DNA from: Pseudomarimonas arenosa
Lineage (GTDB): Bacteria; Pseudomonadota; Gammaproteobacteria; Xanthomonadales; Xanthomonadaceae
Assembly: GCF_014841215.1 (NCBI RefSeq)
Contig: NZ_JACYTR010000019.1
Coordinates: 14,177-78,176 of the forward strand
DNA: 64,000 nt
Direction: 5' to 3'
Positions 50,993 to 62,873 of this stretch are shown here, in pieces (positions within the stretch are counted from its first letter, which is position 1; each line of letters begins with the position of its first letter). The notes under the pieces are model-generated. The model did no database searches. It was not told the origin of the DNA and saw nothing but the letters and a program-made list of their open reading frames with translations. The position numbers were made by a program, and so were the translations under genes.

Positions 50993-51362
50993 GCGGGTCT
51001 CCTTTCTTCGTTTGGTTCAACAGGGCGCTGAGCGCCGTCCATCCCGGAGCTCGTCAGCGCAAGCAGTTGCGGCAAAGCCGCATCGCCTTGGAAGGGAAGC
51101 AAACAAACAATTGAGTGTTCGATTCCTTTGGCGCGCCATCCGTGGCTCGCGACTGCAGCTGCTGAAAGCACTCAGCAGCCAGCGCAAGCCTATCGCACCC
51201 AGAGTCAAGCCAACGGCAAGCTGATTGTTAATAACATGCCGTTCAACCTAACTGCGGTTGTGGTCTTGGTTGGACGAGGCTGCGCCGCCGATCGATCACG
51301 GTTGCATACCCGAGTACACTGAGTACCGGCGACGGAGTAGGTCGCGGCTGCAGGGAGGCGAC

Positions 51363-52106
51363 ATGAACCTCCAATCCAGCGTTTGGTGGCTTCTGCTGTG
51401 CAGCAGTTTGGCCACCGCAAGTGCGATCAGCGCCGAGTCGCGCGAGTATGCGGCAGGGCGGCGCGCCATGCTGGACGAAATCGCCGCCGATGCCCGCCGC
51501 ACCGCGTTTGATACAGGCCGCAGTCGATTCTCCGAGCCCGTCATGCAGGCCATGCAGCGCGTGCCGCGACATGCCTTCGTACCCGAGCAGTACCGCACGG
51601 TGGCCTATGCCAATCGACCACTGCCGATCGGCCATGGCCAGACCATTTCGCAGCCCTATATCGTCGCCTTGATGAGCGACCTGCTCGATATCGAGCCCGG
51701 CGATAGGGTGCTGGAAATCGGTACCGGATCCGGCTACCAGGCTGCAGTCCTGGCTGAACTCGATGCTAAGGTGTTCAGTATCGAGATCATAGAGCCGTTG
51801 GCCAAGCAGGCGGCCGAGCGCCTGCCTGAACTTGGTTACCGCAGTATCGAGCTGCGCCATGCCGACGGCTACTACGGTTGGCAGGAAGCGGCGCCCTTCG
51901 ATGCCATCATCGTTACTGCGGCAGCCAATTCAGTGCCGCCGCCGCTGATTCGCCAGCTCAAACCGGGCGGCGTACTGGTGATCCCGGTCGGCGCACCGTT
52001 CCTGACCCAGAGTCTGATCAAGGTGGAGAAGACCGCGGCGGGCGAGTTGCACACGCAAAGAATTCTGCCGGTGCGCTTCGTACCCCTGACCGGTGAGCGC
52101 GAGTGA
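51363..52106 (+). CDS. pcm: Protein-L-isoaspartate(D-aspartate) O-methyltransferase (Pcm) with a predicted signal peptide
   Basis: PCMT motifs (VLEIGTGSGYQAAVLAEL, region II/III). N-terminal MNLQSSVWWLLLCSSLATASAISA looks like a secretion signal. ATG 51363 preceded by AGGGAGG. Confidence 0.85.
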   Translation: MNLQSSVWWLLLCSSLATASAISAESREYAAGRRAMLDEIAADARRTAFDTGRSRFSEPVMQAMQRVPRHAFVPEQYRTVAYANRPLPIGHGQTISQPYIVALMSDLLDIEPGDRVLEIGTGSGYQAAVLAELDAKVFSIEIIEPLAKQAAERLPELGYRSIELRHADGYYGWQEAAPFDAIIVTAAANSVPPPLIRQLKPGGVLVIPVGAPFLTQSLIKVEKTAAGELHTQRILPVRFVPLTGERE

Positions 52107-52114
52107 ACTGAATC

Positions 52115-54508
52115 ATGGACAGCTCGCCGGCCCGACCTGCGCAGCCGATCGGTCTGCTGCTGTCGGTTGCCTGTATCGCAGCGGCCGCCCTGGCCTATCA
52201 AATCGTGCTGATGCGCTTCTATGCCGTGCTGCATTGGCAGTGGTTCGCAGCGATGATCGTCAGCCTGGCCCTGCTCGGTCATGGTTTGAGCGGCAGCCTG
52301 CTGGCCTTGCGCAGCGCCGCCTTCGGGCGCTGTTTTGACTGGCTGTACCCGTGGTTGGCGGTGGCCTTTGCGCTGAGCATGCCGCTCGCCTTTGCGATCG
52401 CCCAGCGCTGGCCGTTCAACGGCCTGGAGCTGATCTGGGACCCGGCTCAGCTGGCTTGGTTGGCGCTGAGTTATCTCTGCCTTAGCCTGCCGTTTGCCTG
52501 CGCCGCGGCCTGCTTCGGGTTGGCCTTTATTCGCTATGGTGCGGCGATCCCGCGGCTGTATGCCGCCGACCTGTTCGGCGCTGGTCTCGGCGCCCTGGGC
52601 GTGCTGTGGCTGATGCAGGCCTTGCCCCTACGCCACTGGCTGCCTGCGCTCGGGCTGCTGGCGGTGTTCGGCGCCTGGCTGGGCAGTGCCGGCCTGTCGA
52701 TCGCGCGGCGCAGCAGCCTGTTGGCGCTGGGTCTGCTGCTCCTGCCGCCATCGTGGACCGCGGTGGAACCCAATCCCTACAAGGGGCTGAGCGCCACGTT
52801 GCGACTGCCGGGCGCCGAGCGGCTCGAGCGTCAAGCCGGGCCGCTCGGTGTACTGGATCTGCTGGCCAGTCCCGAGGTGCCGCTGCGTCAGGTGGCCGGC
52901 CTGTCGATGCTGGCTGACCGCGAGCCGGTGGCTCAGCTGGGCCTGTTCATTGATGGCGAGGGGCCGAGTCCGATCAGTCAGGTGGTCGATGTCGATCGAC
53001 TGGGCTACCTGGAGCAAACCACCGCCGCCTTGCCGTATCAGTTACTCAGCGCGCCCAGCGTATTGATCCTCGGCGCAGGCGGCGGCGATGCCGGCTGGCA
53101 GGCCTTACGCGGCGGTGCACGCTCGCTGCAGCTGGTGGAACCCAATGCTCAGTTGGCGGCCTGGCTGGATACGCCTGGCTCGCCGGCTTACTCGGCGCTG
53201 ATCGCTGACCTGCGAGTGCAGCGCCGGGTGGCTGATCCGCGTGCCGTGCTCGATCGGGCCGAGCGGCGCTACGATCTGATCGTGTTGCCGCCGCCCGATA
53301 GTCCGATCGGCGCTGGCGGCGGGGTGCAGGCGGCCTCGGACACCTTTCTTTACACCATCGAGGCGCTGCGCTCGGCCTGGCATGGGCTGCAACCGAACGG
53401 CATGATCAGTATCAGCCGTTGGGAGCAAAGCCCGCCGCGGGCCAGTCTGAAGCTGATCGCCACTGCCGTGGCAGCGTTGCGCGATCTCGGTGTCAGCGAT
53501 CCAGCGGCTCATCTGCTGCTGATCCGCGATTGGCAGACCAGCGTACTGCTGATCGGGCGTCGGCCCTTCAGCGCCGAGCAGCAGGCCGCGGCACAATCGT
53601 TTTGCCGCCGCTACGCCTTCGAGACGGTTCATCTGGCCGGTCTGGACCTGTCTGATCTGCAATCGAACGATAGGCTAAGGGAGGCGGTGCGGGCTGTGCT
53701 GGGCGCAGATGCCGAGCGGTTCATCGCCGAGTATGCGTTCGATATTCGCCCGGCCAAGGATGAGCGGCCGTTCTTTCACAACTACTTTCGCTGGCAGACC
53801 CTGCCGGTACTATGGCGGCTGCGCGCCCAGGGCGGCGCGACCCTGCTCGATTCGGGCTATCTGTTGGTGCTGGCGGGCCTGGTCCAGGCCAGCCTGCTGG
53901 CCGCATTGCTGATCTTGCTGCCACTGCGCTGGTTGCCGCGCGCCGCCCGTGCATCGACCTCGGCACTGCGCCGCTGGCCGGCCGCCGCGTACTTCTTCGC
54001 CCTGGGCCTCGGCTTCTTATTCTTCGAGATCGCCGCCCTGTCGCGCTACACGCTGTATCTTGGTCAGCCGCTGTGGTCGGCCTCCCTGGTTCTGGCCGGG
54101 CTGTTGGGGTTTGCCGGTGTGGGCAGTGCCACTGCCCAACGTTGGACGACCCGACCGATGGCGCGGCGTATCGCGGCGTTAAGTGCCGCCGTTGCCATCC
54201 TGGCGTTCGAGTGGCTGCATCCGGCCTGGTTTGCCCTCAGCGCGAACTGGCCGGTGTGGGCGCGCGCGCTCAGCGGTGGCCTGTTGCTGGCGCCCTGCGC
54301 CTTTCTGCTCGGCCTGCCGTTTCCGCTCGGCCTCAGCCGCCTCGCCACGCATGCCCCGGCCCTGGTGCCCTGGGCCTGGGGCATCAATGGCGTGGCCTCG
54401 GTGATCAGTGCCCTGCTGGCCGTGGTGCTGGCCATGGCCTGGGGCTATTCGGTGATCATGCTGATTGCCGCTGGCTTGTATGTGCTGGCGGCGTGGTCGC
54501 GGTTTTGA
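52115..54508 (+). CDS. Polytopic membrane protein with a central spermidine-synthase-like (aminopropyltransferase/methyltransferase-fold) domain
   Basis: About 797 aa. Multi-TM N- and C-terminal blocks flank a soluble region resembling the spermine/spermidine synthase fold (VLILGAGGGD ... DLIVLPPPDSP). Confidence 0.5.
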   Translation: MDSSPARPAQPIGLLLSVACIAAAALAYQIVLMRFYAVLHWQWFAAMIVSLALLGHGLSGSLLALRSAAFGRCFDWLYPWLAVAFALSMPLAFAIAQRWPFNGLELIWDPAQLAWLALSYLCLSLPFACAAACFGLAFIRYGAAIPRLYAADLFGAGLGALGVLWLMQALPLRHWLPALGLLAVFGAWLGSAGLSIARRSSLLALGLLLLPPSWTAVEPNPYKGLSATLRLPGAERLERQAGPLGVLDLLASPEVPLRQVAGLSMLADREPVAQLGLFIDGEGPSPISQVVDVDRLGYLEQTTAALPYQLLSAPSVLILGAGGGDAGWQALRGGARSLQLVEPNAQLAAWLDTPGSPAYSALIADLRVQRRVADPRAVLDRAERRYDLIVLPPPDSPIGAGGGVQAASDTFLYTIEALRSAWHGLQPNGMISISRWEQSPPRASLKLIATAVAALRDLGVSDPAAHLLLIRDWQTSVLLIGRRPFSAEQQAAAQSFCRRYAFETVHLAGLDLSDLQSNDRLREAVRAVLGADAERFIAEYAFDIRPAKDERPFFHNYFRWQTLPVLWRLRAQGGATLLDSGYLLVLAGLVQASLLAALLILLPLRWLPRAARASTSALRRWPAAAYFFALGLGFLFFEIAALSRYTLYLGQPLWSASLVLAGLLGFAGVGSATAQRWTTRPMARRIAALSAAVAILAFEWLHPAWFALSANWPVWARALSGGLLLAPCAFLLGLPFPLGLSRLATHAPALVPWAWGINGVASVISALLAVVLAMAWGYSVIMLIAAGLYVLAAWSRF

Positions 54509-54533: not shown

Positions 54534-55898
54534 TCAATCGGCACCGGCCAAGGCTGAACGCAATAGACCGCTGCGCAGCAAGTTGGCCACCGCCTCGCCG
54601 GGCAGCTGAGTGCTGGGGACCTTTGTCCCCGCCAGTGGAAACAGATCGCGTAGCAGACGTCCGCCCAGAAAGGCGGCACGTTGTCCATTGTCCGTGCAGA
54701 CCAGGGTAGGGCGCAGGGCGATGCGATCGGTCAGGGCGCAGGGCGCGTCTTCCCAGTGTGTGGTCTCACCCAGCTGTAGCCAGCGCGGCAGCTCCAGCGG
54801 CGAAGCGGCTGCATGCGTGTCCTGGGTTTCAAGCTCCGTGCCAGAGCGATCGCGCCAGAACGCACTGCTGATGCCCGCTGCGGCATAGTGCTGCTGCGCG
54901 AAGCGCCGGTGTCGGTTGGCAGTGTCACACAATGCCTGCTGATAAAAAGCCAGGGCCGCATTGCGGTCTGCCGAATAGTGCAAGGCGGTGTTCAGTACCA
55001 GGGCGGCCAATAGGGCCGTCTGGATCGCCACCTGCACCCCGCTGGCGGCCAGCGGATCGATCTGCAACGCTGCATCGCCCACCGCCAACAGGCCGTCAGG
55101 CAGGGGCCAGTCGATCTGCGCGGCGCTGGCATCGACCGCCAACACGCGTCCATGATCGGCCGAGATTTCGCCCTGATCGAGAATCTCGCTGTCGACAACC
55201 GCTTGCCGATACGCTGCTGCCAAGGATGAAGCAGCGCGCTGGCGGCGTAGTTCGGTCGCGTCCTTGAACACAAAGATCCGACTCATGCCGGCTGGCAAGG
55301 GGACGCGCCACAGCCAGCCCTGTGCCGTTGCCGCCAGCCGTGGCGAGGGCGGCAGTTGCGGCCACTCGGCATGCATTGCCCAGGTACTGGCGCCGACATG
55401 CCGCAGCGGCAGTCGCAGCGCGCGCTGCCGGCCGCTGGCGTCGATCAGCCAGCGGCACTGAACGTCGCGTTGAGTTGTGTCATGGCCTAGCCTGAGTCGC
55501 CAGCCCTGCTCCATCTGGCTTCGATGGAGCAAGCGCGCGGGCTGCCAGACCTCGGCTCCATGCGCCTGTGCCATGCGCAGCAACAGGGCATCGAACGCGC
55601 CGCGATCGACCAGCAGGCCAGGGTATGGGTCGTGCCGAGTCTGCCATTCGCTGCCCCAACGAATACCGATTTCATCGGCGACAGGAAAGCGCAGTGCGGC
55701 GATGGCCTCGCCGATACCGAGCGACTGCAGCTGCTGCAGGCAACCGGCACTGATCGACTCGCCTAGGCGTGGCCGAGGAAACGGCTCGCGCTCGACGATC
55801 AGGCTGCGCAGACCAAGCTGAGCACAGCGCAGGCCCAACACACTGCCGGCCGGGCCGGCGCCGAGGATCACGAGGTCGTAGTGGGGTCGAGCAGTCAA
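54534..55898 (-). CDS. FAD-dependent oxidoreductase (halogenase / geranylgeranyl-reductase / UbiH-like fold)
   Basis: N-terminal YDLVILGAGPAGS dinucleotide-binding motif. About 454 aa. Confidence 0.7.
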   Translation of the reverse strand: MTARPHYDLVILGAGPAGSVLGLRCAQLGLRSLIVEREPFPRPRLGESISAGCLQQLQSLGIGEAIAALRFPVADEIGIRWGSEWQTRHDPYPGLLVDRGAFDALLLRMAQAHGAEVWQPARLLHRSQMEQGWRLRLGHDTTQRDVQCRWLIDASGRQRALRLPLRHVGASTWAMHAEWPQLPPSPRLAATAQGWLWRVPLPAGMSRIFVFKDATELRRQRAASSLAAAYRQAVVDSEILDQGEISADHGRVLAVDASAAQIDWPLPDGLLAVGDAALQIDPLAASGVQVAIQTALLAALVLNTALHYSADRNAALAFYQQALCDTANRHRRFAQQHYAAAGISSAFWRDRSGTELETQDTHAAASPLELPRWLQLGETTHWEDAPCALTDRIALRPTLVCTDNGQRAAFLGGRLLRDLFPLAGTKVPSTQLPGEAVANLLRSGLLRSALAGAD

Positions 55899-55987
55899 GG
55901 CTGCAGACCGCCTGCTCGCCGCGGAACTCCCTTGCCGATGGTTGGGGAGGCTGCAGGGGTTCGGCAGCCGATCTTTCTCCGCCTAGG

Positions 55988-56550
55988 GGGCTGGCGTAGC
56001 GAGGTGCCTGGGTAGGGGGAAGTGTTTTCGGCGCCCCGGTTTCCCCCTCTCCCCAACCCCTCCCCCGCCAGGGGGGAGGGGCTATAAGAAGGGGCTTGGC
56101 GTAGCGAGGTGCCTGGGTGTGGGGAAGTGTTTTCGGTGCCCCGGTTTCCCCCTCTCCCCAACCCCTTCCCCGCCAGGGGGGAGGGGCTATGAGGGGCGTG
56201 GCGCAGCGAGGTGCCTGGGTAGGGGGAAGTGTTTTCGGCGCTTCGGTTTCCCCCTCTCCCCAACCCCTCCCCCGCCCGGGGGGAGGGGCTATGAGGGGCG
56301 TGGCGTAGCGAGGTGGCTGGGTAGGGGGAAGTGTTTTCGGTGCCCCGGTTTCCCCCTCTCCCCAACCCCTCCCCCGCCCGGGGGGAGGGGCTATAAGAAG
56401 GGGCGTGGCGTAGCGAGGTGGCTGGGTAGGGGGAAGTGTTTTCGGTGCCCCGGTTTCCCCCTCTCCCCAACCCCTCCCCCGCCCGGGGGGAGGGGCTATA
56501 AGAAGGGGCTTGGCGTAGCGAGGTTCCTGGGTAGGGGGAGATGCCTTCGG
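55988..56550. repeat. Tandem array of about 5.5 copies of a 102 to 104-bp unit, each with two GC-rich hairpins (GGGGGAA..N19..TTCCCCC and CCCCTCCCCCGCC(A/C)GGGGGGAGGGG)
   Basis: Units start with GGGC(T/G)TGGCGTAGCGAGGTGCCTGGGTAGGGGGAAGTGTTTTCGG. They are head-to-tail, more than 90% identical, and the last copy degenerates toward 56630. Both strands give long ORFs that are simply translations of the repeat. Confidence 0.85.
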
Positions 56551-56592
56551 ATTCCCGAACGCTCTCTGTTCTCAACCCCTGCATCGACAAGT

Positions 56593-57966
56593 TCAGCACG
56601 AATCCCCCGCCAGGGCGGAGGGCCTACAACGAGGTGTTTGGTTGAGTCGCAGCCAGGCCCCCAGGCAATGCAGCAACCAGCCGCGGATGTAGTCGCAGGC
56701 CGGGCGGCCGCGGGCGATGACTTCGTGGTGGCAGCCGCCGCCGCAAAGATAGCGGGCCCAGCAGCTTGAACATGGACTTTGCGCGTGGACATGACGTTGG
56801 CGCAGCCAGTTCGCCTGCTTGCCACGATCGATGCCATCCTCGATATCGCCAAGCACGGCGCTGCTATCACCGACAAAGCGATGACAGGCGGCCAACTGGC
56901 CCTCGGCATCCACGCCGAGATAGCCGGCGCCGGCGCCGCAGGGGTAGGGGCGGTGGGTGCCGCGGCCGAGTTCGCGCAGGGCGTTCATCAAATTGGCAAA
57001 GGCATAACGTCGACCTTGGGCGAGCTGTTGCTCGGCGTGCTCGGCGCAGGCGATCATCTGGCCCAGCAGCACACGCAGATCGTCGGCGCCCATTTCCATC
57101 TGGCCGTTCGGCGCATGCAGCATCGGTGAGTAGCCGACGCTGTGAAAGCCGAGGCCGAGCATCGCATCCAGTCCCTCGGGGGTGGGCAGATTGTGCGGTG
57201 TCACCGTCACCCGCGCTGACACCTGCATCTCGCCCTGCCGCGCCAGCAAGGGCTCGATGCGTTGCAGGATGCGCGCGTAGCTGCCTTGGCCATTCGGAAA
57301 CGGCCGTAGACGGTCGTGCTCGGCGGCGTCGCCGTCCAGGCTGATAGTGACGGCGAATCGATGTCGCTGGAACAGCTCGATATCGTCATCGCGGATCAGG
57401 GTGCCATTGCTGGTGATGGAAAAGCTGAGCGCGATGCCGGCCGCCGCAGCACGTTCGGCGGCATAAGCCGTGGTAGCGTGCAGGACGCTGCGATTGGCCA
57501 ACGGCTCGCCGCCCATAAAGGCGAGATTGGCCTTGCCCAGTGGCGCGGCGTCGGTCAGCAAGCGGTCGACCGAACGCTGCGCCACCTGCAGAGACATCGC
57601 TTTCGGCGCTGCCCCAAAACCGCCTTGCTGGGCATAGCAGTACTGGCAGCCGAGATTGCAGCGCTGCGCCACTGCCAGGCTGAGGGCGTGCAGGGGCGGT
57701 TCTTCCGGTGCGCGATCGTCGATTGCCCGACGCGGGTCGACGCCCCAGCGACTTAACAAAGTGCTGCGCTCTATGTCGTCGCCTTGGTGCCAATCCTGGG
57801 CCGCCTGATCGGCGATATCGAACAGCTGCGAGGCATTGCAGACCAGCAGCTGCGCGCCATCGGGGCCCTGAAACAGATGGCCATGGGCCGACTGTGGTCG
57901 ACTGGCCGCGATCGCGCGCTCGGCCCGCGAGCGCGCGGCCAGGCCGTGCTCAGGGCTCAGGGGCAT
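56593..57966 (-). CDS. Radical SAM enzyme with a C-terminal SPASM domain (peptide/protein-modifying maturase family; anSME/PqqE-like)
   Basis: CNLGCQYC (CxxxCxxC) cluster. Auxiliary-cluster Cys patterns near the C-terminus (CGAG ... C ... CSSCWARYLCGGGCHH). About 110-aa N-terminal extension before the radical-SAM core. Confidence 0.85.
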   Translation of the reverse strand: MPLSPEHGLAARSRAERAIAASRPQSAHGHLFQGPDGAQLLVCNASQLFDIADQAAQDWHQGDDIERSTLLSRWGVDPRRAIDDRAPEEPPLHALSLAVAQRCNLGCQYCYAQQGGFGAAPKAMSLQVAQRSVDRLLTDAAPLGKANLAFMGGEPLANRSVLHATTAYAAERAAAAGIALSFSITSNGTLIRDDDIELFQRHRFAVTISLDGDAAEHDRLRPFPNGQGSYARILQRIEPLLARQGEMQVSARVTVTPHNLPTPEGLDAMLGLGFHSVGYSPMLHAPNGQMEMGADDLRVLLGQMIACAEHAEQQLAQGRRYAFANLMNALRELGRGTHRPYPCGAGAGYLGVDAEGQLAACHRFVGDSSAVLGDIEDGIDRGKQANWLRQRHVHAQSPCSSCWARYLCGGGCHHEVIARGRPACDYIRGWLLHCLGAWLRLNQTPRCRPSALAGDSC

Positions 57967-60160
57967 CGCGGCCGCCGATCTGGAATTTCAGCACCTCTTC
58001 CCAGCGCGCGAACAGGTCGGCGTAATCGATCAGGCGCTGATCCTGATAATCGTCGATCACATACTCGCCATCGCGTACCTTGCTCATCCAGTTGTCGCCG
58101 CGACTGCCGTTTTCGGCCGGTTCCAGGTTGATGTAGTCGGGCCGGCTCGAAGCCCAGTAGTAGCAGACGCATTCGCGAAAGTCGTTCTGCCACGGCGAGC
58201 ACAGGCCGCGGGTCAATTCGCCGGGTTCGGCGATCGCATCGCTGATCAAGCCCGAGTCGGGTTCGAAAAAGTTCCGAACTTCGAGTTCCACCGTAATGGT
58301 TTTCTGATGGGTCGGCTTCAGCTCGTGCGGCGCCACCTCGGCGCTAAATTTGCACGGCACCTTCTGCCCGGCCTTTTGCAGGATCAGGGCAAAGGTGTTC
58401 GACCATTCCATGGTGAAGGGCGAGTAGGCCTCATCGCCGGTGCCATCGGCCGAGGGGCCATGGGCCATTGCCACCGTTGGATGGCCATCGACCTCCAGCA
58501 GTCGATGATGTAGCAGCTGCTCCAGGCCCGGGTCGGCCTGCACCACGTAGTTGTTGTGCTCGACCAGGGTGATGCCGCACAGCACCCGACGCCAGGCGCT
58601 GCGGAAATCGAGTTCCAGGCCGGGGCAGCAATTGCCCACCGAGGAGCTGACCACGCTGACGAAAGAGTTGAACTCGCCCTGATACAGCAATTGCGCACTG
58701 CGATTGCGCGGACTTAGCGCGGCGGCTTTGGGTGCTGCGTCGTCATCGAACAGGGTCCACTCGCCGGCGCGTTGCAGGGTGTTCAGTTGGCGCCGGGTCA
58801 GGGCCAGGTAATTGGTATCGGCGCCCGACATCAGGGCCGGCATCTTGCGTCGGCCCTGATCGCTGAGGTCACCGGTGGCATCGGGCGAGCGCATCAGGCG
58901 CGAGAACCAGGCCGGCGTGCCGCTCTGCATGGTCGCCATCAGCTGCTGGTGCAAAGCCAGAATCGCATAGGTATCGACCGCATGCGGCGCCATCACCGGT
59001 GCCAACGGACGCGGATAATCGGAGGAATCATCGGCCGGCATGGTGTCGGCGCGATTCGGTCGGCCGCGGGTGGTGTCGCCATTGAGCACCGCGATGTTCA
59101 TGAACTGCACGGTCTGGAATGCGCCCCGCACGATCGACTCGGCCTCGGCCAGCGGAATCCGCGCGCCCTGCGGGTGTTCCGGGCCTTCCAGTGCCTGCAG
59201 CAGATCGTCGGCCAGGCGACGTACGAACTGCGCATCAGGGGCAAAGATCGGCGGCGCTGAACAGACCCTGCCGCGGGCGCTGTGCACCACACAGTCGTTC
59301 TTATCGACCAGTTCCACCTCGACGTAGCCGTCGCAGATATCATCGAACATGCCGCGGCTGGGTTGCGGGTCGTCGGTGAAATTGAAGAACGGCGCCTTGC
59401 CATAGGCGGCGTACAGGCCCTGCGACAAGGTGTTCAGGGTTTCATCGTCATCGCGGTAGCCATGCCAGCTGCCCTTCTGGCTGTCGTAGAACACCCGCTC
59501 TGGCGGCACTTCGTAGCGCGCGGTGTGCCAGACCGGCGGGATCTTCAGTTCGCGCCGTTGCTCCTCGGTCAGCGGCGTACTGCCGTACACCGCGCCATTG
59601 CTGGGCCAGAAGCGCAGGCGCAGCTGCGGGTGCTCGGCATTCGGTTCGATCAGCTGCAGGGCGCCAAACGGCAGTCGGTACTGTTCGCCCTGGAGGAAAT
59701 TGGCGCATTCGCCGAGCAGGGCCTGTGGCGCATGATCATCGCCCGCGGCGCTCACTTCGGCCCGGATCTTGTCGTTTGGATCATTGGTGCGGCGGAACAG
59801 TTTGTTATTGCCGACCACGGCCCGCCAGCGCAGGCTAAGGCCGGCGGCTTTGAGGTCGGCCTCGGTCAGTGGGCGCAACTGCTGATCGTCGCCGACCCGC
59901 GCATACAGCTCGATAAATGGCGCCACCGGTCGAATCTTGCCGTCCTGCTTGAACGCGATCGGCTGCTCGTTCGGCGCCAGTTCGCCAATGATCTTGCCGC
60001 TGGCGCGATCGGTAAGCAGGGTGCGATCACGGCACAGTCGCGGCAGTTCCAGCGGCTTGTCCGGATCGGGTATCAGGCGGAAGTTGTCCAGCGGCGATTC
60101 CGCCGAACCAACCCGGGCGATGGTCAGTGGTGGCAACAGGCGCAGATCGTCGATCTTCAT
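57950..60160 (-). CDS. Large (about 736 aa) protein of unknown function, operonic with ferritin-like and rSAM/SPASM genes
   Basis: Start MKIDDLRLL at 60160, preceded by AGGAG, overlaps the upstream gene's stop (ATGA). No motif I can assign. Several conserved-looking Cys/Trp clusters (GNCCPGLELDF; CSPWQNDFRECVCYYWASS). Confidence 0.6.
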   Translation of the reverse strand: MKIDDLRLLPPLTIARVGSAESPLDNFRLIPDPDKPLELPRLCRDRTLLTDRASGKIIGELAPNEQPIAFKQDGKIRPVAPFIELYARVGDDQQLRPLTEADLKAAGLSLRWRAVVGNNKLFRRTNDPNDKIRAEVSAAGDDHAPQALLGECANFLQGEQYRLPFGALQLIEPNAEHPQLRLRFWPSNGAVYGSTPLTEEQRRELKIPPVWHTARYEVPPERVFYDSQKGSWHGYRDDDETLNTLSQGLYAAYGKAPFFNFTDDPQPSRGMFDDICDGYVEVELVDKNDCVVHSARGRVCSAPPIFAPDAQFVRRLADDLLQALEGPEHPQGARIPLAEAESIVRGAFQTVQFMNIAVLNGDTTRGRPNRADTMPADDSSDYPRPLAPVMAPHAVDTYAILALHQQLMATMQSGTPAWFSRLMRSPDATGDLSDQGRRKMPALMSGADTNYLALTRRQLNTLQRAGEWTLFDDDAAPKAAALSPRNRSAQLLYQGEFNSFVSVVSSSVGNCCPGLELDFRSAWRRVLCGITLVEHNNYVVQADPGLEQLLHHRLLEVDGHPTVAMAHGPSADGTGDEAYSPFTMEWSNTFALILQKAGQKVPCKFSAEVAPHELKPTHQKTITVELEVRNFFEPDSGLISDAIAEPGELTRGLCSPWQNDFRECVCYYWASSRPDYINLEPAENGSRGDNWMSKVRDGEYVIDDYQDQRLIDYADLFARWEEVLKFQIGGRDAPEP

Positions 60161-61614
60161 GCCAGGGCTCCTGCGGCAAGGACGGCGTTGGCATTGCGTT
60201 GAAAGGCCAGCAAGGCATCGCGCCAGCGCTGATCGGCATCGATCATGGCGGCGAAATAGTCGCGCTCCTCGCCTTCGGCGCTGGCCTTCAGCTCGGCGGA
60301 AAGCAGCAGGGCGGTATCGACCAGTTCCAGCTGCACCGTCCAATCGGCGGCGGCATCCAGGGCCAGGGCCTGAGTGTAAGGCAGCTGGAAAGGTGGCCCG
60401 GCCATCAGTGCATCGGGGCGTTCAGTCATCGGGGCGTGCATCAGCCGATTGGCCAGGCCTTTCAGCGCGTACATCTCGACAAAGCTGTGCTGCAGCAGGC
60501 TGGCCATGGCGCCCGGCGTTTGGTGTTGCTGCGGGTTGCGGGCCAAACGGAAATACTGCGCCAGACAAAACAGCAGGATGCGGTAACGCAGATCGCTGAG
60601 TGCGGCCAGCTTGCGTGTGCGCGGGTGACGAATGCGGCTGCCGTTGCCGTCCTCTGTGTCGCGCAAGGTGCTGGGGTTGCTGGCGATATTGCGATACGGC
60701 ACAGGCGCCTCGTTAGGGAAGCGCTTCTTGTAGTCGCGATAGATGCCGAGAAAGCGCTGGAAGTGCGAGCGCTCATCCGGATCGTGCGGCGCCTCGCCCT
60801 GTTCGGCGACCCGCTGCAGCGCCGCCACGGCTTGATCGCGGGTGGCGCAGGGCTCGATCAACATATCCACCCGTTGCGGCGGGGTGCGCGGGTCGCGCGG
60901 TGGCGGATCGGTATCCCAGCCGACCTGGCCCTCACCGGTCGGTCGGCCATGATTGCGCGCCCAGCCGGCAAAGTCGGCCTGAATAAAGAAGCGGTATTCG
61001 TCGAATACGCTATCCGGCACGCAGTGCCGATCGCTGAGCACCTTGATCAGCCGCTTGTACAGCTTGCCGACGTGGTGGAATTCGTCCTGATTGACCTGCA
61101 GGTACTTCACCGGCGCGCCGATCAGGCGGGCAATTTCCTCGGCCTCCGGCCCGCGCCAGTCCGGCGGCGCCTCGGCATAGACAAACCGTGCCAGCGCCTT
61201 CAGGGTCAGCGGCTCGAGAGTGAAAGGAAACGGATAAAAAGCGCTGTCCCAGGGCAGGTCGCGACGATCCCAGGTGGTGCTGCCGCCAATCAGAGTAATG
61301 ACGTTCTGCACCGTCATCAGATGGCCCATTTCTTCCTTGGCGATACTGAGAATGGTGTCTTGCCAGGCCCGTACCGCTTCGCGGTCGGCCTCTGGCACCT
61401 GCGAGCCACCCAGCGACCAGGCGGCGTACAGGTACTGCACCATCAGCGCGTGCTCGATCTCGGCGCCCATGTGAGCGAGCAAGGCGGCGTAATCGCGCCA
61501 GCCGATCTCATCCGGCTTGCCGCGTGGATGGCGGTGATCGTCCTGCTCCAGGCTGGCCAGCAAGGGCAGCTCCAAACGACGGTGACGCGGTGACCCAGTA
61601 TCAGCACTCGACAT
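60157..61614 (-). CDS. Ferritin-like (diiron-carboxylate fold) domain protein
   Basis: Two ExxH motifs spaced as in ferritin-like four-helix bundles (AEIEHALMVQYLYAAW ... KEEMGHLMTVQNV). Start at 61614 (MSSADTG), alternative 61764. Stop overlaps the next gene's ATG. Confidence 0.55.
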   Translation of the reverse strand: MSSADTGSPRHRRLELPLLASLEQDDHRHPRGKPDEIGWRDYAALLAHMGAEIEHALMVQYLYAAWSLGGSQVPEADREAVRAWQDTILSIAKEEMGHLMTVQNVITLIGGSTTWDRRDLPWDSAFYPFPFTLEPLTLKALARFVYAEAPPDWRGPEAEEIARLIGAPVKYLQVNQDEFHHVGKLYKRLIKVLSDRHCVPDSVFDEYRFFIQADFAGWARNHGRPTGEGQVGWDTDPPPRDPRTPPQRVDMLIEPCATRDQAVAALQRVAEQGEAPHDPDERSHFQRFLGIYRDYKKRFPNEAPVPYRNIASNPSTLRDTEDGNGSRIRHPRTRKLAALSDLRYRILLFCLAQYFRLARNPQQHQTPGAMASLLQHSFVEMYALKGLANRLMHAPMTERPDALMAGPPFQLPYTQALALDAAADWTVQLELVDTALLLSAELKASAEGEERDYFAAMIDADQRWRDALLAFQRNANAVLAAGALA

Positions 61615-62042
61615 GTCGCCCCCCAGCGCATGGCCTGAACTCAAGGTTTCCCCGGCATCGATCGCCCGAGGATGGAAACGCGTGAGGGGAGTGTGCCAGA
61701 AGCGGAATCGTTTCGCCGGGTCGGCCGTAGTGAACAACGGCACAGTGCAGCGTTTGATTGACATGCGAGTCGAATGGGTCAGGTGGGCACGGTCCCTGTC
61801 GGATGCGCCTCAATGCGTAGCACAATGCTGAAGTACTCATTTCAGCAGCCTGTTGTTGCGCGGCGCACTCGGAATTCACCCACGCACGTCATTGATGTCC
61901 GGCACCTTTGGACGAGTATTCTGGGATTGTTGAGCGGTTGCGCTGAAAACCATCCAGGGTGGAGGTATTTCGACAGCCTGTTAAACCTTTTCCCACCCAA
62001 CGGCATCCAACCAACACCATTGACCCTAGAGGGAGCTTGCTC

Positions 62043-62873
62043 ATGCGCATCGAATTGCCCTTCACTGCCTGTCTGCTGCTGGCCTCCGGCTCGGCATTCG
62101 CCTGGGGCGACTGCGATCACCGCGCCGAGCGCGCGCTCGATATCGCACCCGGCCAGGCCGTCACCCTGGCCCTGGCTGTTGGTGCCGGTGACCTGGAGGT
62201 GCGCGGCGACCCCAAGGCCAGCCAGATTCAACTGCGCGGCCGCGCCTGTGCCAGCAGCCAGGCATTGCTCGATCAGATTCAGTTTCTTGGGCAAACCAGC
62301 GGCGACCGGGTCGAGGCACAAACCCAGATCCCCAAGCTGGAGGGCGGCTGGGGCTCGGACACTGCCTACATCGATGTCACCGTGGTGATGCCCGCTCACC
62401 TGATACTCGATTTGCGCGATTCCTCAGGTGATATCGACATCCATGCCGTGGCCGCGGTCAAGGTGAAGGACAGCTCAGGCGATATCCGTATTCGTGAGAT
62501 TGGCGGCTCGGTGGAAGTCGCGGACAGCTCTGGCGATATCGAGATTCGCACCGTCGCCGGCAATGTCGAGGTAACCAATGACAGCTCCGGTGACATCGAG
62601 ATCGATGACGTGCAGGGTAATGCTCTGGTGCGGGTCGACAGCTCGGGCGATATCGAACTAAGCGGCATCCGCAAGAACGCCGAAGTCGGCCGCGACAGCT
62701 CCGGCGGCATCGTGTTCAAGGATATCGGCGGCAATGCTACCGTCGGCAGCGACAGCAGTGGCGGCATTCGGGCCAGCAAGGTGCGGGGCGACTTTATCGT
62801 CGATGCGGATACCAATGGCGATATCAGCCATAGCGATATTGGCGGCCGGGTTGACGTGCCGATGCGGCGCTGA
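62043..62873 (+). CDS. Secreted DUF4097-like beta-strand repeat (putative adhesin-like) protein
   Basis: Signal peptide MRIELPFTACLLLASGSAFA. About 8 tandem 20-aa repeats with core DSSGDI(E/R/D)I. Confidence 0.6.
   Translation: MRIELPFTACLLLASGSAFAWGDCDHRAERALDIAPGQAVTLALAVGAGDLEVRGDPKASQIQLRGRACASSQALLDQIQFLGQTSGDRVEAQTQIPKLEGGWGSDTAYIDVTVVMPAHLILDLRDSSGDIDIHAVAAVKVKDSSGDIRIREIGGSVEVADSSGDIEIRTVAGNVEVTNDSSGDIEIDDVQGNALVRVDSSGDIELSGIRKNAEVGRDSSGGIVFKDIGGNATVGSDSSGGIRASKVRGDFIVDADTNGDISHSDIGGRVDVPMRR

Follow-up and report, generated by a model that had tools for sequence, protein, structure and literature searches.

The window analysed here is a stretch of 64,000 nucleotides of the gammaproteobacterium Pseudomarimonas arenosa (contig NZ_JACYTR010000019.1, positions 14,177 to 78,176). 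Its minus strand carries a cassette of four genes that encode, in this order, a ferritin-like protein of the Pfam family PF12902, a large protein akin to the oxidases LodA and GoxA, a radical S-adenosylmethionine enzyme with a SPASM domain (rSAM), and a protein dependent on flavin adenine dinucleotide (FAD) (Table 1; residue numbers are those of the window proteins). LodA, an L-lysine epsilon-oxidase, and GoxA, a glycine oxidase, are cysteine tryptophylquinone (CTQ) enzymes whose flavoprotein maturases are LodB and GoxB. CTQ is otherwise listed only in quinohaemoprotein amine dehydrogenase (QHNDH) (2025 review, PMC11951088). The four genes of the cassette probably make and operate one protein-derived quinone enzyme.

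Organisation and conservation of the cassette

Three minus-strand open reading frames (ORFs) form the first part of the cassette: 60157..61764 (535 amino acids (aa) from its first ATG), 57950..60343 (736 aa when read from its ATG at 60160) and 56593..57966 (457 aa). The initial annotation, made from the sequence alone, had described these three genes and their overlapping boundaries, which the sequence confirms. The junction ctggcATGAagatc at 60157-60160 contains an ATGA that is both the stop of the ferritin-like gene and the start of the large-protein gene, and the large-protein and rSAM genes share the 17 nt of cgcgATGcccctgagcccTGAgc at 57950-57966. The ATGA and 17-nt overlaps indicate that the cassette genes are translationally coupled in the window. 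The ferritin-like gene was correctly recognised, except for its upper end at 61764: its homologues are 470-500 aa long and a 91%-identical relative has 485 aa, so that the ATG at 61614, 150 nt inside 61764 and yielding a protein of 485 aa, is the most likely start. The FAD gene does lie on the same strand beyond a repeat array, as had been noted, yet it does not stand apart from the three-gene unit, since it is conserved together with the other three genes.

Table 1. Features of the cassette in the window and of related cassettes on plasmids
Feature	Position	Strand	Remark
Ferritin-like (PF12902) partner protein, 485 aa	60157..61614	-	ATG at 61764 is a less likely start
LodA/GoxA-superfamily protein, 736 aa	57950..60160	-	Predicted CTQ-type quinoprotein and predicted substrate of both maturases
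N-C511-C512-PGLE516-L-D518 motif	58607..58633	-	Possible third crosslink site
Predicted cofactor core, C654-SPWQN-D660-FRE-C664-V-C666-YY-W669-ASSRP-D675	58136..58201	-	
Radical SAM/SPASM maturase, QhpD-like, 457 aa	56593..57966	-	
Tandem repeat array, 105-bp unit x 5.3	55987..56539		Outside the conserved cassette
FAD-dependent monooxygenase, QhpG-like, 454 aa	54534..55898	-	Predicted peptidyl-tryptophan hydroxylase
Type II cassettes	L086 8289-10184; L087 8398-10287; L088 8273-10027		Nostoc, Streptomyces and Rhizobium plasmids

A pattern-based scan, with one genome per species, detected relatives in 182 species. Eighty loci were fetched. Six-frame translations of all loci were queried with the window's four proteins, and 73 loci had adequate flanks. 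The initial annotation had proposed co-occurrence of the three families as a check, and it is found nearly always: all four genes are present in 68 of the 73 loci. The order ferritin-like, LodA-like, rSAM and flavoprotein, on one strand, is kept in 57 of the 68 complete loci, a recurrence across species and phyla that exceeds chance; in 11 loci the gene for the flavoprotein is found upstream, in divergent or in co-directional orientation. In most loci no space is left between the rSAM and flavoprotein genes, which adjoin or overlap. These loci span the Alpha- and Gammaproteobacteria, Acidobacteriota, Verrucomicrobiota, Planctomycetota, Gemmatimonadota, Myxococcota, Cyanobacteria and Actinomycetota. 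There is hardly any doubt that the four genes form one conserved unit.

The unit is uncharacterised, and its genes bear only generic names in RefSeq. A search with the 736-aa protein returned 588 relatives, and the named entries among the 120 matches listed are all called 'hypothetical protein'; an exhaustive profile search retrieved 1365 cluster representatives at E <= 1e-3. On a Rhizobium plasmid, RefSeq names the cassette genes 'ferritin-like protein / hypothetical / hypothetical / radical SAM protein / tryptophan 7-halogenase', and in an NCBIfam scan none of the four cassette proteins is claimed by a curated model. A small precursor peptide was considered as a further member of the unit and rejected: clustering of 8197 short ORFs from 83 loci (L001-L083) gave no conserved small ORF within 1.5 kb of the cassette, the sole conserved ones being shadow frames inside the cassette genes.

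The cassette proteins

The initial annotation saw no recognisable catalytic motif in the large protein and suggested a Foldseek comparison of it. An AlphaFold2 (AF2) model based on 58 homologues (predicted local distance difference test (pLDDT) 82, predicted template modelling score (pTM) 0.88) was compared with the PDB: the best 50 matches are all GoxA or LodA, with E about 1e-12, and these two are the only strong structural matches, at an identity of 12-20% in structural alignments. At the sequence level the kinship escapes the curated models. LodA_C of Pfam reaches 23 bits, below its cut-off of 25, LodA_N leaves the protein unmatched, and the NCBIfam models NF038172 (LodA, 21 bits vs a cut-off of 600) and NF038173 (GoxA, 19 vs 750) both fail. 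A family profile aligned with PDB sequences places three collinear motifs on LodA and GoxA: an N-terminal 'LxxxPxxxxxRxG', a central 'YLDDxCDG...PPxxxPD' and a C-terminal 'GELTQGLCSPWQNDxREC', which faces GDLTKRMACPWQADFFNC of LodA and superimposes D660 on LodA Asp512 and C664 on LodA Cys516, the CTQ cysteine. Features in common with LodA and GoxA comprise the N-terminal 'hPxIGhARhG', the DDxxDG and CPGxE motifs, the 'PGDLT..PWQxDxxxC' segment, which holds both the catalytic Asp and the Cys of CTQ, and a Trp placed within W-x4-P. Catalytic motifs of LodA, PWQxDxxxC and CPGxE, are present after all, and it is virtually certain that the large protein is a homologue of the LodA/GoxA superfamily. 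A quinone-cofactor maturation system with a LodA/GoxA-like protein and a flavoprotein, which the initial annotation had offered as speculation, gains support from the Foldseek result, from the alignment with Asp512 and Cys516, and from the QhpG/LodB-type flavoprotein described below.

C654, D660, C664, C666, W669 and D675 are invariant in the 58 homologues. For comparison, the C-termini of LodA-type and GoxA-type proteins were recovered by means of a chimeric fragment query, which returned short fragments only. The cofactor Trp stands in 'YWWPPQSP' in the LodA type and in 'AWWAANLP' in the GoxA type; the window protein has 'YYW669ASSRP', with W669 five residues past C664 and in a WAxxxP motif like that of GoxA. 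W669 is assigned as the putative cofactor Trp because of this resemblance of motif context; a profile of the C-terminal segment searched against the PDB gave an alignment that stopped short of the LodA cofactor Trp. Further upstream, 'NCCPGLExD' (residues 510-518) matches the LodA-type 'MCPGIEV' (in 'LPMCPGIEVTW'). In the 58 homologues C511 and C512 are at least 90% conserved, while P513, G514, L515, E516 and D518 are invariant. The AF2 confidence is low at residues 511-515 and, exactly, at residues 665-672, a distribution that may fit loops shaped by crosslinks and is only suggestive.

The same core can be read against a subunit of QHNDH. The rSAM enzyme QhpD crosslinks QhpC, the small gamma subunit, through three Cys-to-Asp/Glu thioethers (C7-E16, C27-D33 and C41-D49); QhpG then dihydroxylates Trp43, the C37-W43 pair yields CTQ, and Asp33 adjoins the cofactor (PMC7876137). 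QhpC sequences were taken from two annotated operons. QhpC reads 'LC27QPMEAD33LYGC37ADPC41WW43PAQVAD49' where the window protein has 'LC654SPWQND660FREC664VC666YYW669ASSRPD675', a nearly identical Cys/Asp/Cys/Cys/Trp/Asp layout in which the C-x5-D, D-x3-C and W-x5-D spacings are the same. Alignment with hhalign sets C654 and C27, D660 and D33, C664 and C37, W669 and W43, and D675 and D49 in register at the cost of a single 1-residue gap; this lead counts only in combination with the kinship of the rSAM and the flavoprotein. A single regular expression drawn from the core pattern finds QhpC as well as 85 of the 87 other loci fetched up to then, and has exactly one match in the whole six-frame translation of the window (128,000 residues). 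To this is added the 510-518 motif, which resembles QhpC 'C7TTSFDPGWE16VD'. No match to the QhpC family came up when the C-terminal segment was scanned with Pfam at E <= 10.

Other architectures also occur among the relatives. The next-closest plasmid relatives of the rSAM (39-45% identity) belong to cassettes of Nostoc, Streptomyces and Rhizobium that we call type II. Pfam was applied to the Nostoc cassette, in which a ferritin-like protein of PF12902 is followed by the rSAM, a fusion protein and a small FAD protein; the other two plasmids are colinear. The fusion protein combines a domain of ~250 aa, bearing 'NC[YF]PGLE' and 'CSPWxxDFR[DE]CGCxYWAxxxPD', with one of family PF12902. The Nostoc and Rhizobium type II cassettes have a gene for a DyP-type peroxidase nearby, and a vanadium-chloroperoxidase-like protein is also found at the Nostoc locus. 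Many entries of the profile search represent split LodA-like forms, in which an N-terminal part (1-465) and a C-terminal part (467-744) are separate proteins; on a plasmid of Rhizobium sp. CB3171 (L084 4697-6960), an N-terminal protein of ~460 aa is accompanied by a C-terminal one of ~290 aa bearing the Cys/Trp core. This two-protein layout is reminiscent of QHNDH. Two proteins of 1700-2060 aa (P0340 and P0349) fuse an arsenite-oxidase-like Rieske and molybdopterin oxidoreductase to the N-terminal two-thirds of a LodA-like protein, which suggests that the LodA-like N-terminal domain takes part in other electron-transfer enzymes. C654, C666 and D675 are shared by QhpC, the LodA-like family and the type II cassettes, all three of which have an rSAM, and the residues that are extra with respect to LodA and GoxA co-occur with it in three separate protein architectures.

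The rSAM exhibits the CNLGCQYC motif at 57637..57660 and SPASM cysteines at 56731..56940. Pfam reports Radical_SAM at 52 bits, Fer4_12 at 31 bits and SPASM at 17 bits, below the cut-off of 21.5; the seven-Cys SPASM pattern was read directly (CX13GX4C, CX2CX5CX3C and one more Cys). Among NCBIfam models, QhpD (TIGR03906) ranks first with 303 bits, followed by PapB (268), nif11 (235) and SCIFF (223) maturases and anaerobic sulfatase-maturating enzymes (anSME, 91). The protein is 35% identical over 371 aa (E 4e-75) to the annotated QhpD/PeaB of a Paracoccus qhp operon, in an alignment that starts at residue 88 and leaves the N-terminal ~87 residues unaligned. In a PDB sequence search the SCIFF maturase CteB is best, with 167 bits. 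PapB forms Cys-Asp thioethers. PapB and CteB belong to the same rSAM clade, but their substrates are short peptides that contain a leader and are encoded beside them. An anSME identity, a grouping the initial annotation had thought damaging to its proposal, is rejected: the score on TIGR03942 compares with a cut-off of 349, the anSME structures reach 36 bits, and no sulfatase gene is seen among the genes adjoining the cassette.

The flavoprotein, which bears a GAGPAG motif at 55845..55862, matches FAD_binding_3 and Trp_halogenase in Pfam. Its NCBIfam scores are 227 bits for QhpG (NF049967), 110 for LodB (cut-off 400), 97 for CmlS and 87 for GoxB, so that the QhpG score is twice that of LodB and more than twice that of CmlS. 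On these profiles it is a relative of LodB within the CmlS-like group, and no LodB equivalog. A halogenase is unlikely because, in an alignment of 69 homologues, the catalytic position of halogenases shows no conserved Lys. That Lys is expected ~70-80 residues from the N-terminus, and the first 211 residues of the window protein contain no Lys; the sole position with Lys in at least 50% of the homologues is 290, where the window protein has Val.

The ferritin-like protein reaches 101 bits on PF12902 (cut-off 22). Its AF2 model (pLDDT 85) is a helical bundle with an extra helical C-terminal half. E54, E94, E95 and H98 are invariant, H55 reaches a conservation of at least 90%, and all lie on two long N-terminal helices; this Glu/His set fits a predicted dimetal-carboxylate site, of a putative iron/manganese type. 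The 'diiron oxidase/hydroxylase' of the initial annotation stands at the level of the fold, and at that level only. No Cys is conserved in the homologue alignment. The best structural match in a fold search is CC_0557 of Caulobacter (PDB 3HL1), described in the PDB just as 'ferritin like protein' with no function attached; it belongs to the same Pfam family, whereas the window protein adds the helical C-terminal half. According to the supplement of the 2015 LodA census, CC0556 is a LodA-like protein of group IB and CC0555 its LodB-like partner (PMC4417212). By locus-tag number alone, CC_0557 adjoins this pair and shares the LodA-like genomic partnership; a structure solved for a LodA-associated ferritin-like partner would then already exist. 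PF12902 genes also adjoin fungal lodA-like genes, and other LodA-like proteins are fused to catalase-like and iron-redox domains (PMC4417212). Natural fusions join PF12902 to the LodA-like N-terminal part (P0317, P0322 and P0337) or a CTQ-motif domain to PF12902 (P0397 and the L086 protein). Given these fusions, CC_0557, the fungal neighbours and the LodA-like fusions to other redox domains, the partnership with the quinoprotein appears to be physical and functional and independent of the rSAM, and the ferritin-like protein is therefore tentatively placed with the working enzyme and not with the crosslinking step. In sequence searches, a profile of the ferritin-like protein found nothing among PDB sequences and the single sequence found a chance match only. 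A weak match to the VioB model TIGR04492 covers residues 104-200 (E 4e-7, 28 bits vs a cut-off of 1250): the PF12902 domain is common to VioB, RebD and StaD, of which a stretch of ~100 residues is matched and not the full-length architecture of ~1000 aa.

A proposed maturation route and its alternatives

The reading that we consider probable is that the large protein carries a CTQ-type cofactor that is crosslinked by the rSAM and depends on the flavoprotein, with a QHNDH-style maturation on a LodA/GoxA scaffold. C664 and W669 would form the CTQ, and D660 would be the active-site Asp. The QhpD-like rSAM would install Cys-to-Asp (possibly Cys-to-Glu) thioethers around the cofactor site, W669 would next be hydroxylated by the QhpG-like flavoprotein, and the C664-W669 thioether would then form, with oxidation to the quinone. 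Bridges are predicted for C654-D660 and C666-D675, and a third may run from C511 or C512 to E516 or D518; that the exact pairs are as predicted has somewhat less than an even chance. The large enzyme itself would be the rSAM substrate, with no separate small subunit or leader peptide: it is the only plausible thioether substrate, because the ferritin-like protein has no conserved Cys and no conserved small ORF accompanies the cassette. The initial annotation had missed the likeness of the helpers to QhpD and QhpG as well as the QhpC-like core, which gives the rSAM a concrete predicted job. Once mature, the enzyme would oxidatively deaminate a primary amine or amino acid via a quinone Schiff base. 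The ferritin-like protein would act as an obligate partner and is probably a second subunit that contains a dimetal centre.

The cassette belongs strictly to neither known family. It exhibits the fold and residues of LodA and GoxA and fails all curated sequence thresholds. As with LodA and GoxA of Marinomonas and Pseudoalteromonas, which are accompanied by LodB and GoxB, a CmlS-like flavoprotein is encoded alongside, and PF12902 neighbours are again found (fungal LodA-like genes and, by locus-tag number, Caulobacter CC0556). In contrast, equivalents of C654, C666 and D675 are absent from the LodA-type and GoxA-type sequences retrieved, the cassette adds an rSAM gene, and its flavoprotein is nearer to QhpG than to LodB. 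QhpD and QhpG are the best-matching characterised families of its rSAM and flavoprotein, albeit below the cut-offs, and with QHNDH it shares a predicted logic of thioether caging, Trp dihydroxylation and CTQ formation (PMC7876137). It differs in that the quinone bearer of QHNDH is a leader-bearing subunit of ~80 residues and its partner a cytochrome, as against a 736-aa LodA-fold enzyme and a predicted ferritin-like dimetal protein. The structural components of QHNDH are lacking, and no genes for the dihaem QhpA, QhpB, the protease QhpE or the exporter QhpF are seen adjoining the cassette in the window or in homologous loci. Inspection of the N-termini, for which no signal-peptide tool was run, gave no obvious export signal. 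A 2015 survey, with LodA and GoxA as BLASTP queries, describes the operons of lodA-like genes with lodB-like partners only, and 'radical' occurs nowhere in the text of the paper (PMC4417212). Full-text literature searches returned no paper linking LodA-like proteins with radical SAM enzymes.

Several observations weigh against this QHNDH-style maturation. Neither helper reaches the cut-off of its best family: the 303 bits of the rSAM compare with an equivalog cut-off of 453, and the 227 bits of the flavoprotein with 240, its alignment covering model positions 2-402 of 423. In pairwise comparisons with the PDB, the flavoprotein scores higher with the halogenases CndH (97 bits) and ChlB4 (96) than with QhpG (7CTQ, 70). 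The hhalign match to QhpC concerns a short motif and has an E of 0.14, not significant alone, and the pattern was recognised after the fact. C666 is not in exact alignment with QhpC C41, and the distance from Cys to Trp is 5 residues in the window protein vs 6 in QhpC, 15 in GoxA and 65 in LodA. The assignment of W669 comes from a motif comparison with no significant alignment. At the Sorangium cellulosum locus L002 and at locus L056, the genes for the ferritin-like and LodA-like proteins are retained with the whole Cys/Asp/Trp motif, and the flavoprotein gene lies ~7 kb upstream, yet no rSAM gene is seen within 8 kb. To our knowledge, the leaderless action of an rSAM on internal loops of a 736-aa protein would be unusual for the SPASM clade. 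A role of the ferritin-like protein in handling electrons, O2 or H2O2 is proposed with low confidence and is the least supported part of the model. More generally, what has been observed is the anatomy and conservation of the cassette, the fold and family kinships, the invariance and spacing of the motif residues and the gene fusions; the presence of CTQ, the crosslink pairs, the order of the steps, the part played by the ferritin-like protein and the substrate are all inferred from sequence and predicted structure.

Other explanations must be weighed against the same evidence. The flavoprotein alone might make CTQ from C664 and W669 as in LodA, the QhpC-like spacing being coincidental, and the rSAM might modify the large or the ferritin-like protein otherwise, through a sactionine, a Cys-Trp or C-C crosslink or a non-crosslinking change. 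The scaffold is indeed LodA/GoxA-like and such enzymes need a flavoprotein only (PMC7876137); the rSAM, below the QhpD cut-off, is also similar to the nif11 and SCIFF maturases, and the likeness to the QhpC motif lacks statistical significance by itself. Against this, the two best rSAM families, QhpD and PapB, both form Cys-to-Asp/Glu thioethers, the extra invariant residues are exactly Cys and Asp at QhpC-like spacing and track the rSAM in three architectures, and the ferritin-like protein, the other possible target, has no conserved Cys. We regard maturation in the manner of LodA only as unlikely.

LodA and GoxA release aldehydes and ammonia, not free alpha-imino acids. This bears on a small-molecule pathway, which we judge more improbable still and in which the LodA-like enzyme would oxidise an amino acid or amine and the PF12902 protein would capture, couple or oxidise the reactive product. 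The models are VioA/VioB and RebO/RebD, where a PF12902-containing enzyme dimerises the imine from an amino-acid oxidase; for the rSAM and flavoprotein this would mean a role in tailoring or else in cofactor maturation, the latter being compatible with the QHNDH-style reading. The VioB-model match is weak but specific, some homologues bear the name 'iminophenyl-pyruvate dimer synthase domain' protein, the coupling between the ferritin-like and LodA-like proteins is tight and sometimes amounts to fusion, and about 40 loci have a SnoaL-like protein after the cassette. However, the VioB score is a small fraction of its cut-off, the neighbour survey of the loci found no further biosynthetic genes in the cassette and no conserved transporter, the release of aldehydes speaks against a free imine, and the QhpC-like Cys/Asp pattern would be left unexplained. 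A cluster for a ribosomally synthesised and post-translationally modified peptide, in which the rSAM would mature an unannotated small peptide and the other proteins would tailor it, or in which the flavoprotein would be a halogenase, seems very improbable to us. Membership of the rSAM in the SPASM peptide-maturase clade would agree with the former, and the RefSeq name 'tryptophan 7-halogenase' and the halogenases among the best PDB sequence matches with the latter; but the 83 loci contain no conserved small ORF in or around the cassette, the abutting and overlapping genes leave no space for a precursor gene, and the missing catalytic Lys and the low CmlS score disfavour halogenation.

If the QHNDH-style maturation is correct, the cassette would define a fourth, widespread class of CTQ enzymes, across at least eight phyla, and would link the two routes of CTQ biogenesis. 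The substrates of thioether-forming SPASM enzymes would then include a full-size enzyme besides peptides, and a recurrent partnership of a quinoprotein and a ferritin-like protein would be added to what is known. Better names would follow for genes now called 'hypothetical protein', 'radical SAM protein' and 'tryptophan 7-halogenase'. LodA-like oxidases are of interest for biosensors and antimicrobial uses (PMC4417212). Work on QHNDH treats the routes of CTQ biogenesis as convergent (PMC7876137). It is possible, and we put it forward tentatively, that the cassette is an evolutionary and mechanistic bridge between the two routes, with the active-site loops of a LodA-fold enzyme caged by rSAM-made Cys-Asp thioethers as in QhpC, a SPASM maturase that crosslinks internal loops of a large leaderless enzyme, and a new enzyme type, a two-subunit oxidoreductase composed of a quinoprotein and a dimetal protein. 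The QhpC core and the LodA/GoxA cofactor site would then be homologous.

Surroundings of the cassette

The rSAM and FAD genes are separated in the window by the tandem repeat array of Table 1 (93% matches in Tandem Repeats Finder). The unit contains a G/C-rich palindrome, CCCCTCCCCCGCCCGGGGGGAGGGG, and its core sequence has no second site elsewhere in the window. The array yields long spurious ORFs, 55895..56599 on the minus strand and 56119..56769 on the plus strand. In the nearest relative (L089) the gap between the two genes is smaller, and repeat-like sequence has been read into the annotated rSAM ORF (553 aa). Since the two genes mostly abut elsewhere and the gap of the nearest relative is smaller, the array is best seen as a local insertion of variable size. 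A scan for promoters and terminators found nothing exceeding shuffled expectation.

Compared with L089, the LodA-like protein is 92% identical, the ferritin-like protein 91% and the rSAM gene ~83% at the DNA level. The flavoprotein is just 69% identical (L089 13850-15199).

Outside the gammaproteobacterial clade, in ~40-55 loci (e.g. L003 12944-16664), the cassette is usually followed by a signalling protein of ~1100 aa, a Ser/Thr kinase or adenylate/guanylate cyclase plus AAA_16, and by the SnoaL-like/DUF4440 protein. Neither this regulator nor the SnoaL-like protein is present in the window. Directly downstream of the cassette, on the opposite strand, lies a gene for an apparently polytopic membrane protein of 797 aa (52115..54508, plus strand) with no Pfam or NCBIfam match. 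It is preceded by an ORF of 282 aa (51258..52106, plus strand) that by eye resembles protein-L-isoaspartate O-methyltransferase. Both are seemingly missing from the matching position in L089, as judged from its gene list. Upstream of the cassette and divergent from it, 61959..62873 (plus strand) encodes a DUF4097/LiaG-like repeat protein with 'DSSGDI' repeats.

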